64,000 nucleotides of DNA from an uncultured delta proteobacterium (GTDB taxonomy: Bacteria > Desulfobacterota > Syntrophia > Syntrophales > Smithellaceae). The position numbers and the translations under genes were made by a program. The DNA is taken from assembly GCA_963845095.1 (NCBI GenBank), contig CAWJQM010000019.1, positions 53,316 to 117,315 on the forward strand. Direction: 5' to 3'. Below are positions 27,388-34,058 of this stretch, one piece after another (position 1 is the first letter of the stretch; the number at the start of each line of letters is the position of its first letter). The notes beneath the pieces are model-generated. The model had not been told where the DNA came from and ran no database searches. It saw only the letters and a list, made by a program, of their open reading frames with translations.

Positions 27388-29309
27388 TTAATTTTCCTTC
27401 CCTTCCGGCTTTTCAGGTTCGGGAGTAACCTGTTCATTGAATTCCAAATGTGGCTGATCTTCCTGATCTGCCGGTTTTATAGTCAAAAAGCTCAATTTTT
27501 CCGGCTGCTCTGGTATTACCGGCGCCGCGATTTCCTGCGCAGGGGCTGCCGCCGCCAAAATATTCCCCGGCAGGATAGTTTGCTGTTTAACCGGAACTTC
27601 CGTTACCGGCGCTGCCTGTGCAGCGCCCTCCGGTAAACTTCCTTCCTTCTTGATGTCCGAAGGCTTCCGGCGGCGAGCTGCGGTGGCGGTGCCGCTTTTT
27701 CTTGACCGGAATTTCCCCTCCGCCCGGGATTGCCTGGGGCGGATTCCCGGCAGGCATTTCCGGGGCTGCTTTCTCCTTAGGCGCCGGTTCTTCCGGGACC
27801 GTTAACTCGGACTGGCCGGCCGGCTCAATTAAATCTTTTTCTTTCAGGGTCTGCTGTATCTCTATTTTATCCCACTGCATTTCCCCGCTGCCGGAAATAT
27901 TCAGAAACAGGCCGAATGAAGATTCCAGACTTAAAAGTTCAGCTCTTTTTTGGTTGAGAATATAACTTGCTATTTCAGGCGGCAGAATTACTTTGAGCTC
28001 GGAGTAAATTCCTTTAACTGCTTCCGATTCAATTTTACGGAATGCTCCCAGAGCCGCATATTCCAGAGAAGGCCTTAATCCGCTGCCCTTGCAATAGGGG
28101 CAGTTTATGTAGCTTATTTCCTGGATTGTCGGCTGCTTTTTCTGCCGCGATAATTCGAGAATGCCAAATTTCGAAATTCGTGACAGCTGGATTCTTGCCC
28201 GATCAAGACTCAACGCTTTCTTGAATGATTTTTCCACTTCCGCAACATTTTTCTTTTCCATCATGTCGATGAAGTCGATAACTATCAATCCGCCCAGGTC
28301 ACGCAGCCGCAATTGGCGGGCGATTTCTTCGCAGGCTTCGGTGTTTGTTTTAAACGCTGTCTCCTCGATATTGCGCTTGTTCGAGCCGCGTCCGGAGTTC
28401 ACATCAATTGTAATCATCGCTTCCGTCGGGTTGATAATAATATATCCGCCGGATTTGAGATCTACGCGCTCCTGATAAATTATCCTTATTTGCTCTTCCA
28501 GTTGGAAGCGCTCAAAAATAGGGATTTTTTCTTTGTAGCTGACGAGTATTTTTACATTCCGGGGAGCGACTGCCTTCAGATAGGCGCGCATTTTGCGGAA
28601 GGTGTCGGCGTCGTCAACAAAAATCTCTTCAATTTCCGGCGTCAGATAGTCCCGCAGCGAGCGCACACCAAAATCGGTTTCCTGATAAATGAGCATTGGC
28701 GCATTGACATTATTCGTTTTCTTGGTTATTTCTTTCCAGAGGCGCATCAGATGTTGATAGTCGCGGTAAATTTCCGGCTTTGTCCGGTTTATACCGGCTG
28801 TCCGCACAATAAAACCCATGTTATCCGGAATTCTGAATTTGTCCCATCAGGTGTTTGATTTTCTGCCTGTCCTCTTCATCATCAATTTTGCGTGATATTC
28901 CTGTGCCGGGCTTGTTGGGCAGTAAAACAAGATACCTGCCGGGCAGAGAAATATAGGAGGTCAGGAGCGCTCCTTTGTTTCCGGTTGCTTCTCGAACTGC
29001 CTGGACAATGATTTCCTGACCTGCCTTGAGCGTCGGTTTGCTGTTCGTTTGTCCATTTTCCGGGTCGGTTGAATACTCCGGGCAGGCATCGCGCAGAGGT
29101 AAAAACCCGTCTTTGCCTACTCCATAGTCAACAAAGGCGGCTTGCAGTCCACGTTCAACTTTTAGCACCTTGCCTTTGTAAATGTTGCCGGTGATGTGAT
29201 CTTTCATCGACATTTCAATGTTGAATTCGATGAGTTTACCTTTTTCATCAACGGTTGCCATCCGCTTCTGTTCCCTGTGAACAGCGTTAATAAGCATAGT
29301 ATGTTTCAT
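27388..29309 (-). CDS. rne: Ribonuclease E/G family, two frameshifts
   Basis: S1 GNIYKG..AAFVDYG, IDVNSGR, RLRDLGGLIVIDFIDM, Zn-link CPYC.G.G; Pro/Glu/Lys-rich tail continues in another frame to TAA at 27388. Confidence 0.92.
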
Positions 29310-29324
29310 AAAATATCCTTTTTT

Positions 29325-29397
29325 GGCCTGCTGCAATCCGGTGCGTTATTAAGCGCTCAGACTCCTTTTGGCTTCCGTTGTCCGATTGGCAGCGGCC
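29325..29397 (-). promoter_or_regulatory. Structured leader upstream of rne
   Basis: 15-bp closing stem with three single bulges (GGCC-GCTGC-AATC-GG), ending a few nt before the RBS. Confidence 0.55.
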
Positions 29398-30199: not shown

Positions 30200-31801
30200 T
30201 CAAAGCTTTTGCGTTGATCCTTTCTTCTTGCCGATATCTTTGCTGAGCTTATATTGAATACTGTCAGCAAGGGCCTGCCAGCTTGCTTCCAGGATGTTTT
30301 CCGAAACGCCGATTGTGCTCCATATTTCTTCGCCGTCAGTGGAGTCCAGAAGAACGCGGACTCCGGCGGCTGTTCCTTCCGAACCTTCCAGCGTTCGCAC
30401 TTTAAAATCAATCAGGTGCATTTCCTTGATTTGAGGGTAGAATTTTATCAGCGCCTTGCGCAAAGCGTGATCCAGCGCATTTACCGGGCCGTTTCCTTCC
30501 GCCGCTGTCAATTCGTCTTCACCGTCTACGGATATTTTAATTGTTGCCTGGGAAAGACAGGGGTTGTTTCCCGTACGCGAAGTAACCACACTGAAACATT
30601 CCAATGTAAAAGGATCAATAAATTCGCCTATTGCCTTCTTGATCAATAAAGAAAGAGAGCCGTCGGCAGCGTCAAACTGAAAGCCGCGATCCTCCATCCG
30701 CTTAACTTCACGCACGATTTTTTTACTCAAAGAAGCGTTCTTTTCCAGGTCAATGCCCAGCTCCTTGGCTTTATATTCAACATTGCTTTTGCCTGACAGA
30801 TCGGAAACAAGGACACGACGGTGATTACCGACAAGTGCAGGTTCGATGTGCTCATAAGCTGCGGGATTTTTTGTTACGGCGCTGACATGGACGCCTCCTT
30901 TGTGAGCGAATGCGCTGCGTCCGACAAAAGGACGCGAGTTCAGGGGCGGAACATTTGCTGTGTCACTGATAAAGTGGGACAGGTTAGTCAGTTGATGGAT
31001 TGATTCCGGAGGCAGGCAATTTTTTCCCATCTTGAGCTGCAGGTTGCCGATGAGCAAAATCAGGTCGGCATTGCCGCATCTTTCGCCGTAACCGTTGACG
31101 GTACCCTGAACCATTCTGACGCCTTCCTGTACAGCCGCGATGGAGTTGGCTGCGGCCAGTCCGCAGTCATTGTGCGCGTGGATTCCCGCCGTTTCTAAAG
31201 GAAGATAGGTGGAAACTTTTTTTACAATGGAGCTGACTTCATGGGGCATTGATCCGCCGTTGGTATCACAAAGCACAATCATATCGGCTCCGGCGGCGGC
31301 GGCCGTTTTGATTACTCTGACAGCATAATGAGGGTTATTCTTGTAGCCATCAAAAAAATGTTCGGCGTCAAAGAGCACTTCTTTGCCCAGATCTTTGAGA
31401 TATTTAATGGAATCGCTGATCATCCGCAGGTTTTCGTCTAATTCGATTTTGAAAATTTCGTGGACATGCAAATCCCAGGATTTGCCGAATATGGCCACGG
31501 ACTGTGTTCCTGCTTTCACGAGAGCCTTCATGTTTGCGCAGGCCGCCGGCTTGATATGCGGCTTACGGGTGCTGCTGAATGCCGTCAGCCGGGAATTCTT
31601 AAATTTGATGTCTTTTGCCATTTCAAAGAAACGCAGGTCTTTGGGATTAGAGCCCGGCCAACCTCCCTCAATGTAATGGAAATGAGCTTCATCAAGGCGC
31701 TGTGCAATACGCAGCTTTTCTTCTGCGGAAAAATTTATCTGTTCGCCCTGCGTACCGTCTCTTAAAGTTGTGTCGTAAATTAAAACTGAATTTTTTTTCA
31801 T
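30200..31801 (-). CDS. cimA: Citramalate synthase
   Basis: DTTLRDGTQ, IEGGWPGSNPKD, FGKSWDLHV, DAEHFFDG, HAHND, GYGERCGN, C-terminal regulatory domain GNGPVNALD. Confidence 0.95.
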   Translation of the reverse strand: MKKNSVLIYDTTLRDGTQGEQINFSAEEKLRIAQRLDEAHFHYIEGGWPGSNPKDLRFFEMAKDIKFKNSRLTAFSSTRKPHIKPAACANMKALVKAGTQSVAIFGKSWDLHVHEIFKIELDENLRMISDSIKYLKDLGKEVLFDAEHFFDGYKNNPHYAVRVIKTAAAAGADMIVLCDTNGGSMPHEVSSIVKKVSTYLPLETAGIHAHNDCGLAAANSIAAVQEGVRMVQGTVNGYGERCGNADLILLIGNLQLKMGKNCLPPESIHQLTNLSHFISDTANVPPLNSRPFVGRSAFAHKGGVHVSAVTKNPAAYEHIEPALVGNHRRVLVSDLSGKSNVEYKAKELGIDLEKNASLSKKIVREVKRMEDRGFQFDAADGSLSLLIKKAIGEFIDPFTLECFSVVTSRTGNNPCLSQATIKISVDGEDELTAAEGNGPVNALDHALRKALIKFYPQIKEMHLIDFKVRTLEGSEGTAAGVRVLLDSTDGEEIWSTIGVSENILEASWQALADSIQYKLSKDIGKKKGSTQKL

Positions 31802-31953
31802 CGTCATCCTCGCTTTCCTGACCGCCGCTTGCGCGGCATATTTCCGCCGTAAGTCTTGCTTACGGAATAATTTGTTTGACCAATTTCAGCTTGTGACCTC
31901 GCGTGACCTTTAGGTTATTAGGTTATGCGTTAGGCTTTTGAAATTGGAGTTAA

Positions 31954-31992
31954 ATAAAAAAACCGCTGCCGGGATTTCCTGGCAGCGGTTTT
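31954..31992 (-). terminator. Attenuator terminator of cimA
   Basis: Minus strand AAAACCGCTGCCAGG-AAAT-CCCGGCAGCGGTTTTTTT. Confidence 0.9.
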
Positions 31993-32017
31993 AAATATCT
32001 TTTGATGTTCATTGTGG

Positions 32018-32098
32018 CTATTCCACGACCAGGCCTCCTATGGGGACGCTAATTATAATGTTGCTAATTATAATGGGTCTGATGGCAATCGTTTTCAT
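32018..32098 (-). CDS. Ile-rich leader peptide of cimA (MKTIAIRPIIISNIIISVPIGGLVVE)
   Basis: 26 codons, 9 Ile (3 ATA), located between a sigma70 promoter and the terminator. Confidence 0.88.
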   Translation of the reverse strand: MKTIAIRPIIISNIIISVPIGGLVVE

Positions 32099-32126
32099 AG
32101 CACCAATTAATATCACATTTTTTTGC

Positions 32127-32155
32127 ATCCTAATTTTTCCCGGTTTGTTTGTCAA
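32127..32155 (-). promoter_or_regulatory. Sigma70 promoter of the leader-cimA transcript
   Basis: TTGACA-17 nt-TAGGAT. Confidence 0.7.
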
Positions 32156-32471: not shown

Positions 32472-33704
32472 ATGAATTCCGGAGATACAGCGTGGGTTTT
32501 GATGTCCACAGCATTGGTGTTGTTAATGACGATTCCGGGTCTGGCATTCTTTTACGGGGGGCTGGTGCGCCGGAAAAATGTTTTATCTATTTTAATGCAG
32601 TGCCTGATTATCTTGTGTGTAATCAGTCTGCAATGGGTGCTGTTTGGCTATTCGCTGGCTTTCGGCCCCGATTTTCACGGGATTATCGGCAAACTGGATT
32701 TTGCCGGCCTGCGCGGCGTCGGCTCTTTGCCGAACGCCGATTATGCCGCAACCATTCCGCACAGCGCCTTTATGATTTTCCAGGCCATGTTTGCTGTCAT
32801 TACACCGGCCCTGATCATTGGTGCCTACGCCGAAAGAGTCAAGTTTTCCGCTTTTCTGGTCTTTACTGTTCTGTGGGCCACCTTTGTTTATGATCCGCTG
32901 GCGCATTGGGTCTGGGGAACCGGGGGCTGGTTAAAATCCATGGGAGCTCTTGATTTTGCCGGAGGGATTGTTGTTCACGTCAGTTCCGGTATCTCGGCAC
33001 TGGTCTTGGCGCTTCTGCTGGGCAAAAGGATCGGTTATAATCACCGGCCCATCCGCCCGCACAATTTGCCCTTTACGGTTCTGGGAGCAGCTCTTTTGTG
33101 GTTTGGCTGGTTCGGTTTCAATGCCGGCAGCGCACTCGCCGCCGATGGCCTGGCCGTAAACGCATTCATCACTACCAACACGGCAACTGCCGCTGCCGGT
33201 TTGACCTGGGCGCTGATTGAATGGTGGCATAACGGCACACCGACAATCCTGGGTGCGGCGACCGGAGCTGTGGCGGGACTGGTGGCCGTTACCCCGGCCT
33301 GCGGTTTCGTCAATCCCATGAATGCCATTTTTATCGGCATGATTGCCGCCGGTATCTGCTATATGGCCATTGCCGTAGTCAAGGCAAAACTCGGCTATGA
33401 TGATTCCCTGGATGCTTTCGGCGTCCATGGTGTCGGCGGAATCTGGGGCACAATCGCCACCGGTCTTTTTGCGGAAAAGGCTGTCAATGCCGCCGGCAAC
33501 AATGGTTTCTTTTTCGGCAACGCTCATCAATTGCTGGTTCAGGCAGGACTCGTAGTTGTCACAATTGCTTTTGCGGCCATTATGACCTTGATCATCTACA
33601 AAATTGTGGATGCCTTAATCGGCATGAGAGTCGAAGAAAAGAGCGAAATAGTGGGGCTGGACTTAACCCAGCAGAGCGAAGCTGCATATACCGTCATTGA
33701 ATAG
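32472..33704 (+). CDS. amtB: Ammonium transporter
   Basis: FYGGLVR.KN, FQAMFA, DFAGGIVVH, WFGWFGFNAGS, DDSLDAFGVHG (twin His present). Confidence 0.97.
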   Translation: MNSGDTAWVLMSTALVLLMTIPGLAFFYGGLVRRKNVLSILMQCLIILCVISLQWVLFGYSLAFGPDFHGIIGKLDFAGLRGVGSLPNADYAATIPHSAFMIFQAMFAVITPALIIGAYAERVKFSAFLVFTVLWATFVYDPLAHWVWGTGGWLKSMGALDFAGGIVVHVSSGISALVLALLLGKRIGYNHRPIRPHNLPFTVLGAALLWFGWFGFNAGSALAADGLAVNAFITTNTATAAAGLTWALIEWWHNGTPTILGAATGAVAGLVAVTPACGFVNPMNAIFIGMIAAGICYMAIAVVKAKLGYDDSLDAFGVHGVGGIWGTIATGLFAEKAVNAAGNNGFFFGNAHQLLVQAGLVVVTIAFAAIMTLIIYKIVDALIGMRVEEKSEIVGLDLTQQSEAAYTVIE

Positions 33705-33716
33705 GAGGATATAACC

Positions 33717-34058
33717 ATGAAACTGATCGTCGCTATTATACAGCCGCATAAACTTGATGCCGTCAAGAAGGCCCTGGAAGCAGTTGATGTTCACCTGATG
33801 ACTGTAACGGAAGTTCTGGGCCAGGGAAGGCAAAAAGGTTTTACCGAGGTTTACCGCGGCGCCAAAGAGGCCGGAGGCCTGCTCAAAAAAGTCCGGCTGG
33901 ATATTGCCGTAAATGATAATTTTGCGGAACCGGCGATAAACGCCATAACTGCGAGCGCCCATACCGGAGAAGTGGGTGACGGCAAGATATTTGTTCTTGA
34001 TCTGGCCGAATGCATTCGCATCAGCACCGGCGAAAGCGGTGGTAAGGCAATCGGATGA
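33717..34058 (+). CDS. glnK: PII nitrogen regulator
   Basis: GRQKG..EVYRG, TGEVGDGKIFV, IRI.TGE; linked to amtB. Confidence 0.93.
   Translation: MKLIVAIIQPHKLDAVKKALEAVDVHLMTVTEVLGQGRQKGFTEVYRGAKEAGGLLKKVRLDIAVNDNFAEPAINAITASAHTGEVGDGKIFVLDLAECIRISTGESGGKAIG

Follow-up and report, generated by a model that had tools for sequence, protein, structure and literature searches.

What controls the expression of citramalate synthase is the question raised by a short intergenic region in the genome of an uncultured member of the Smithellaceae (order Syntrophales, phylum Desulfobacterota). CimA opens the threonine-independent route to isoleucine, which is used by many anaerobes. In the stretch of 64,000 nucleotides analyzed here and referred to as the window (contig CAWJQM010000019.1, positions 53,316 to 117,315), a gap of 660 bp is found between the divergently oriented gene amtB and a 535-codon ORF on the minus strand (30200-31807). 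This gap houses the whole leader region. From the letters of the DNA, it had originally been predicted that a promoter, an isoleucine-rich leader peptide, an antiterminator, and a terminator together constitute an isoleucine-sensing attenuator of the citramalate synthase gene. All features named in that prediction were re-found, base for base, on the minus strand at the positions compiled in Table 1.

Target gene and layout of the leader region

The enzyme named in the original prediction is the one encoded downstream of the leader region, where the 535-codon ORF matches the equivalog model TIGR00977 with 730.7 bits (cut-off, 450). Its Pfam domains are HMGL-like, HCS_D2, and LeuA_dimer. An identity as leuA was excluded, since the same ORF scores 250.3 bits on the model leuA_bact, which is below the cut-off of 598.7. 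A distinct leuA is located elsewhere in the genome (G000:C16), where it is split over two frames (137 + 558 bits). Translation of cimA would more likely start from ATG 31801 than from ATG 31807, because the former is preceded by GAGGA at a distance of 6 nt and matches the MKKN start of the relatives. Within the genome collection, cimA has its closest counterparts in Smithella and Syntrophaceae MAGs (78-89% identity), which places the window in the Syntrophales. The source genome, as far as it is assembled (2.95 Mb, 88% complete, 4% contaminated), agrees with citramalate as the principal way into isoleucine synthesis; a threonine dehydratase was not found in it by TIGR01127, the best score being 55.7 bits versus a cut-off of 378.75.

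The sigma-70-type promoter upstream of the leader matches the consensus at 10 of 12 positions in the promoter scan. With five promoter-like sites observed in the region versus 3.1 ± 1.7 expected, such a match by itself does not exceed chance expectation. The Shine-Dalgarno sequence of the leader ORF is weak (GGTG). The leader does contain the nine isoleucine codons among 26 and the two ATT-ATA-ATT triplets that had been claimed for it, and the second triplet (codons 14-16) is predicted to be the conserved sensing site. The proposed antiterminator pairing held when checked by hand, CCUGGUCGUGG being complementary to CCGCUGCCAGG at 10 of 11 positions with two G-U pairs. Likewise, the GC-rich terminator with U7 is present at 31992-31956. 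Its hairpin (31992-31963) reads AAAACCGCUGCCAGG-AAAU-CCCGGCAGCGG and is followed by U7 at 31962-31956; the terminator scan lists this hairpin under the plus strand only, the U7 tract, however, is on the minus strand. A role of the hairpin as terminator of an upstream gene was excluded by the divergent orientation of the neighboring amtB. The fold of the 176-nt leader has an energy of -49.4 kcal/mol compared with -33.45 ± 3.7 kcal/mol in 200 shuffles (z = -4.31), none of which was as stable. When the whole genome was scanned for short ORFs having at least five of one residue in eight and a terminator behind them, 21 matches were obtained, among which the cimA leader is the only one for isoleucine.

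Table 1. Elements of the cimA leader region and the downstream gene, in window coordinates.
Feature	Position	Strand	Basis	Remarks
Sigma-70-type promoter, TTGACA-17-TAGGAT	32127..32155	-	sequence and promoter scan	
-35 box (TTGACA)	32155-32150	-		17-nt spacer to the -10 box
-10 box (TAGGAT)	32132-32127	-		
Leader ORF	ATG 32098 to TAG 32018	-	sequence	26 codons + TAG, 9 Ile; encodes MKTIAIRPIIISNIIISVPIGGLVVE
Ile triplet 1, ATT-ATA-ATT	32066..32074	-	sequence	codons 9-11
Ile triplet 2, ATT-ATA-ATT	32051..32059	-		codons 14-16; 5' of and overlapping segment 1
Segment 1, AUUAGCGUC	32045..32053	-	folding	able to pair with the 5' part of segment 2
Segment 2, GGAGGCCUGGUCGUGG	32023..32038	-	sequence and alignment	inside leader codons 21-26
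Antiterminator 5' arm, CCUGGUCGUGG	32033-32023	-		last 11 nt of segment 2, codons 22-26
Segment 3, CCGCUGCCAGG	31978..31988	-	sequence, fold, and alignment	terminator 5' arm, common to the antiterminator
Intrinsic terminator	31956..31992	-		8 G-C-rich pairs plus GG:CC, with A4 and U7 on the flanks
Dispersed repeat copy, 38 nt	31890..31927	-	repeat search of the genome	between terminator and cimA
cimA, (R)-citramalate synthase	30200..31801	-	TIGR00977 and Pfam	putative regulated gene

The dispersed repeat between the terminator and cimA, of which seven other full or partial copies are found in the genome, is located inside an inverted repeat (CCAAUUUCA...UGAAAUUGG). It is not part of the predicted switch and is missing from most relatives. 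The distance from the terminator to cimA, which is about 150 nt in the window, is mostly made up of this insertion. On the opposite side of the leader region, the gene divergent from the leader promoter, amtB, encodes an ammonium transporter (32472-33704, plus strand) and is accompanied by a P-II regulator gene of the glnB type, both together spanning 32472-34058 on the plus strand.

Conservation of leader peptide and competing helices in the Syntrophales

The gene cimA is present in 133 of the 151 genomes of the order (E ≤ 1e-100). The covariance model R1 was built on A1, an alignment of 37 leader regions (MAFFT), from which the reverse-strand pattern matches of L006, L101, L105, and L108, locus L105 itself, and the loci without the element (L005, L009, L010, L012, and L013) were left out. 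R1 matches were obtained in 135 of the 151 genomes, corresponding to 23 of 24 families. A match of this kind is listed directly upstream, on the same strand, for at least 111 of the 133 cimA genes; the remaining 22, for which no R1 match is listed, include some at contig ends, and others may belong to the 84 R1 matches beyond those listed. The conservation of the leader, on which the original prediction had been made dependent, is hence given, and the search upstream of cimA orthologs that had been suggested with it returned isoleucine-rich short ORFs and covarying stems across the order. The arrangement of leader and terminator is present in all but one of the 29 non-self cimA loci listed for the order. 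In the one exception, L105 (G100:C6), the leader ORF has been lost, and cimA is kept directly behind another gene; the hairpin is retained just past the stop codon of that preceding gene, with a degenerate U-tract (TTTATTATT).

Among the best 80 cimA loci of the collection, an isoleucine-rich short ORF (at least five isoleucines in eight residues, within 500 nt upstream of cimA) is found in seven. Six of these are near relatives (L001, L002, L004, L006, L008, and L011); the seventh, L058, is unrelated and comes from an apparently AT-rich genome. L003 and L007 have weaker or partial versions of the leader, L007 ending at a contig end. In more distant relatives, cimA is located directly behind an aspartokinase or ilvC gene without a leader. 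Of the 36 related loci whose upstream DNA was long enough for the comparison, 32 have an exact TTGACA, usually as TTGACAAA, before the leader. A gap of only 11-40 nt between the U-tract and the cimA start leaves little room for a second promoter in most relatives.

For the comparison of leader peptides, ORFs were chosen solely by their stop position (from 14 nt before to 25 nt after the start of segment 2), so that isoleucine content plays no part in the choice. This rule yielded exactly one ORF in 35 of the 37 sequences, that of the window included; of the two sequences without a chosen ORF, L007 is truncated and L092 stops earlier. Isoleucine accounts for 265 of the 858 residues (30.9%) in the 35 leaders, with leucine at 4.7%, valine at 4.4%, and threonine at 7.1%; the background of isoleucine in the long ORFs of this genome is 7.55%. 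Two consecutive isoleucines occur in every one of the 35 leaders and three in 25 of them. The peptides comprise 18 to 31 residues and are highly divergent in sequence, with the isoleucine content being kept. Counted from where segment 2 begins, the stop codon starts at 13, 2, -3, or -7 nt in all 35 leaders, and from this geometry a terminating ribosome would always be placed over the antiterminator arm. The conserved stretch around CAUAGGAGGCC is read in different frames in different families. Since the stop is fixed as the frame over CAUAGGAGGCC varies, the position of the terminating ribosome, and not the peptide, appears to be what is conserved.

The in-frame codon pair AUA-AUU is found in 33 of the 35 leaders, mostly as the last isoleucine pair before segment 1. 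ATA makes up 32.1% of the leader isoleucine codons (ATT, 45.3%; ATC, 22.6%), compared with 17.5% in the long ORFs of this genome. AUA is decoded by a dedicated tRNA that requires lysidine, which is made by TilS. The tilS gene is present in the genome (166.7 bits; cut-off, 93.6), as are three tRNA genes with a CAT anticodon; a gene for tRNA-Ile(GAT) was not found in the assembled genome, which is 88% complete. The remark in the original prediction that the ATA codons would also report on the TilS-modified tRNA is partly supported by codon usage and the presence of tilS. Decoding speed and RNA sequence are indistinguishable as reasons for keeping ATA: the leaders are related to one another, AUU belongs to segment 1 as well, and selection on the codon is thereby inseparable from selection on the RNA. 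Rare codons reportedly sharpen the leu attenuator of Salmonella, the leader of which is said to contain four rare CUA leucine codons. The cimA leader resembles it in having the least-used synonymous codon at the sensing site, but differs in that its AUA depends on the tRNA with TilS-made lysidine.

Both competing helices are supported by the alignment, although shuffle controls overstate this support because the sequences are related. In the terminator helix (3:4), 93.1% of the cells are paired, compared with 26-41% in slid controls, and four pairs are changed on both sides. In the antiterminator (2:3; columns 79-89 with 129-139 of A1), 88.7% of the cells are paired versus 27-49% in slid controls, and compensatory changes are found at two pairs (83-135, GC/AU/GU; 84-134, UA/CG/UG). 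Most double changes split the sequences into two large groups, the Smithella family having CCGCUGCCAGG and the remaining sequences CCGUUAUCAGG, and the independent compensatory events are therefore few. The helix between segments 1 and 2 was judged by per-sequence folds, the A1 columns differing between the Smithella family and the rest. In the window it is weak (AUUAG:CUGGU plus GUC:GGA; -8.0 kcal/mol, z = -0.5), and its counterpart AUUAGG:CCUGAU is clear in most other families, where AUUAGG follows the conserved AUA-AUU and CCUGAU opens segment 2. Averaged over all 37 sequences, this helix has a z of -1.5; in 24 of them, z is below -1. The conserved AUA-AUU is located 17-19 nt upstream of segment 2. 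When the ribosome was represented by simple masking, the antiterminator already formed in a ribosome-free transcript cut after segment 3, and in the full-length fold of the window, leader codons 3-5 were the partner of segment 2; thermodynamics, therefore, do not single out the uninduced state.

Proposed mechanism and alternative explanations

The cimA leader would most probably be a classical ribosome-mediated transcription attenuator by which cimA is coupled to the supply of charged tRNA-Ile. This reading of the original prediction is supported by comparison, namely, by the recurrence of the element over the order, the isoleucine-rich leaders, the fixed stop, and the covariation of both helices. 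A short ORF, codons for the pathway product, an intrinsic terminator, a 2:3 antiterminator, and the geometry of stop and stall site are all present; of the features that define classical attenuators at the sequence level, only the 1:2 helix is not clearly developed in the window. That the leader is translated, that the ribosome stalls, and that isoleucine elicits a response is inferred from these features, and the sequence of events may be envisaged as follows.

Transcription would start about 20 nt upstream of the 26-codon leader. When Ile-tRNA is plentiful, the ribosome would reach the UAG codon (32020-32018) and sit on segment 2. With segment 2 covered, segment 3 would pair with segment 4, the terminator would form, and RNA polymerase would stop at U7 before cimA. 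When Ile-tRNA is scarce, the ribosome would stall at the isoleucine clusters, above all at the AUA-AUU of codons 15-16, where it would cover segment 1 and leave segment 2 free. The free segment 2 would capture segment 3 once this is transcribed, no terminator would be formed, and cimA would be transcribed.

Leader and hairpins could also regulate cimA without codon stalling, the isoleucine codons not being the sensed feature; constitutive read-through set by leader translation, an effect on Rho or mRNA stability, or action of the peptide in cis would be conceivable. Such a mode of action is considered unlikely. It can draw on the weak 1:2 helix of the window and on the ambiguity of the masking model, as well as on the ilvB leader of Streptomyces coelicolor, where candidate regulatory codons were reportedly changed and regulation was unaffected (PMC1262725). 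However, the enrichment of isoleucine persists across divergent leaders and through a change of frame at the 3' end, and the leaders of leuA and ilvB, in the same genome, are each rich in the product of their own pathway; such a pattern would be difficult to account for if the codons were not read as the signal.

It is quite improbable that a protein, a tRNA, or a small ligand operates the alternative hairpins as an RNA switch (T-box-like, riboswitch-like, or by protein antitermination), with the ORF being incidental. The terminator/antiterminator is indeed the best-conserved part of the element, and the nucleotides around CAUAGGAGGCC are conserved even where the frame differs. Against a switch of this kind, Rfam 15 returned nothing at gathering score between 31000 and 33000 (best E = 0.046, an unrelated sRNA) and nothing relevant up to E = 10, there is no structured domain of aptamer size, since the ORF takes up the approximately 75 nt ahead of segment 2, and the fixed stop position and the isoleucine bias would be left unexplained. 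The regions before cimA at 20 loci of other phyla likewise gave no Rfam match at gathering score.

That the ORF is a gene for a hydrophobic micropeptide with its own terminator, cimA being transcribed from a separate promoter, is scarcely credible: the peptide is hydrophobic and some 150 nt separate the terminator from cimA in the window, but this spacer is largely the inserted repeat and shrinks to 11-40 nt after the U-tract in most relatives, sequence and length of the peptide (18 to 31 residues) vary with only the isoleucine content being kept, and homologous elements precede other genes of the isoleucine pathway.

Related leaders and known attenuation systems

Well-known attenuators of branched-chain amino acid biosynthesis in enterobacteria are ilvL of ilvGMEDA, ivbL of ilvBN, and leuL of leuABCD. 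The cimA leader shares with them the order of a promoter and a short ORF with clustered end-product codons, antiterminator and terminator helices that exclude each other, a stop codon that would let the terminating ribosome block the antiterminator, and a terminator with U-tract before the first biosynthetic gene. Unlike in these systems, the target is cimA of the citramalate route, which is not known to be used for isoleucine in those model organisms. The element is also unrelated to theirs in sequence, has no Rfam match, and belongs to the lineage Syntrophales. In contrast to ilvL, which is multivalent for isoleucine, valine, and leucine, the cimA leader would sense isoleucine alone, with isoleucine at 31% and leucine and valine each below 5%. 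In Geobacter-type bacteria, cimA may be preceded by a T-box for isoleucine.

Leader-peptide elements are also reported before ilvB in the Actinobacteria (Corynebacterium, Mycobacterium, and Streptomyces; PMC1262725, PMC10272879, PMC13236596). These have in common with the cimA leader that a short ORF with branched-chain codons overlaps a terminator hairpin outside the Proteobacteria sensu stricto; unlike it, they precede ilvB and carry mixed isoleucine, valine, and leucine codons. In S. coelicolor, look-alike leaders of ilvB and leuA are reported not to be classical in behavior (PMC1262725). Attenuators in proteobacteria were surveyed in 2004 in FEMS Microbiology Letters, as cited in PMC1262725. 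In the literature searched, with most subscription journals outside its scope, no paper on a cimA leader, attenuator, or T-box was found, nor did the literature on Deltaproteobacteria and Syntrophus within this scope contain a cimA leader paper; published control of cimA, within the same literature, is not by attenuation. The mechanism would be a textbook one, and cimA as target gene and the Syntrophales as order seem to be undescribed for such a switch.

A second R1 match is present in many genomes of the order, and in all 12 examined (L111-L122) it precedes ilvB-ilvN-ilvC. The leaders at these 12 ilvB-ilvN-ilvC copies are isoleucine-rich and have the same GGC-AUA-AUU core and switch sequences. 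In the family to which the present genome belongs, R1 finds only the cimA copy, with one match per genome. Outside the order, R1 matches are found in 7 of 146 genomes of the phylum; full-length matches precede ilvD in two cases (L133 and L137, with mixed isoleucine, leucine, and valine codons) and cimA in one (with a mixed leader), and a partial match precedes ilvB. The ilvBNC and ilvD leaders of the phylum thus resemble that of cimA in the CCGUUAUCAGG / CCUGAUA switch, the GGC-AUA-AUU core, and the R1 match, and are unlike it in the downstream operon and, outside the order, in their mixed isoleucine, leucine, and valine codons.

In the present genome, ilvB (at about 77734 of G000:C14) is preceded by a leader rich in valine and leucine (77496-77591, with the core VRVLVVVL), which is located behind a TTGACA promoter. 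It is followed by two hairpins, the second of which ends in a U-tract. This leader is kept in all nine family loci examined. Before leuA, at about 176162-176340 of G000:C16, a leucine-rich leader (core, LPLLLGLALLRLL) and a GC-rich terminator are found; the leucine-rich leader is kept in seven of nine family loci examined. With cimA, leuA, and ilvB, three enzymes of the branched pathways would each have a leader matched to its own product.

As a tentative joint reading, for which the odds are less than even, an old, duplicating family of isoleucine attenuators may be envisaged in the Syntrophales, with the AUA codon as the true sensor. The GGC-AUA-AUU core and the CCUGAUA / CCGUUAUCAGG switch would have been copied before cimA, before ilvBNC, and elsewhere before ilvD; in the Smithella family, ilvBNC would have a valine/leucine leader, so that cimA, leuA, and ilvB would each read their own product. 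If this is true, read-through would depend on the single lysidine-modified tRNA-Ile2 and not on bulk tRNA-Ile, and isoleucine synthesis would be tied to the charging, abundance, and TilS modification of a minor tRNA.

An attenuator for isoleucine only that is conserved over the order would provide a genetic read-out of the branched-chain balance in syntrophs that are hard to grow. Together, the isoleucine leader of cimA, the leucine leader of leuA, and the valine/leucine leader of ilvBNC would make up a full set of attenuators, each matched to its product, in a genome outside the model Proteobacteria, and the near-invariant AUA codon would offer a simple way to ask whether minor-tRNA decoding tunes such switches. 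The element may also be useful in annotation, where it would distinguish cimA from leuA paralogues and flag unannotated short ORFs.

Two further observations were made in the same genome. The gene for RNase E/G is split in the window into two parts on the minus strand (27587-28819 and 28821-29336), which are in different frames and match positions 3-148 and 155-402 of the model. The genes ilvB and leuA of the genome are also broken over several frames, which suggests indel errors of the assembly rather than three pseudogenes. Finally, a tyrosine-rich short ORF (YYGYYYY) with a TTGACA-like promoter and a terminator is located at G000:C1:94776-94877. The gene downstream of it encodes, as judged by eye, an amino acid-binding protein of the LivK type of an ABC transporter, and the short ORF may be a tyrosine-sensing leader on this uptake gene.
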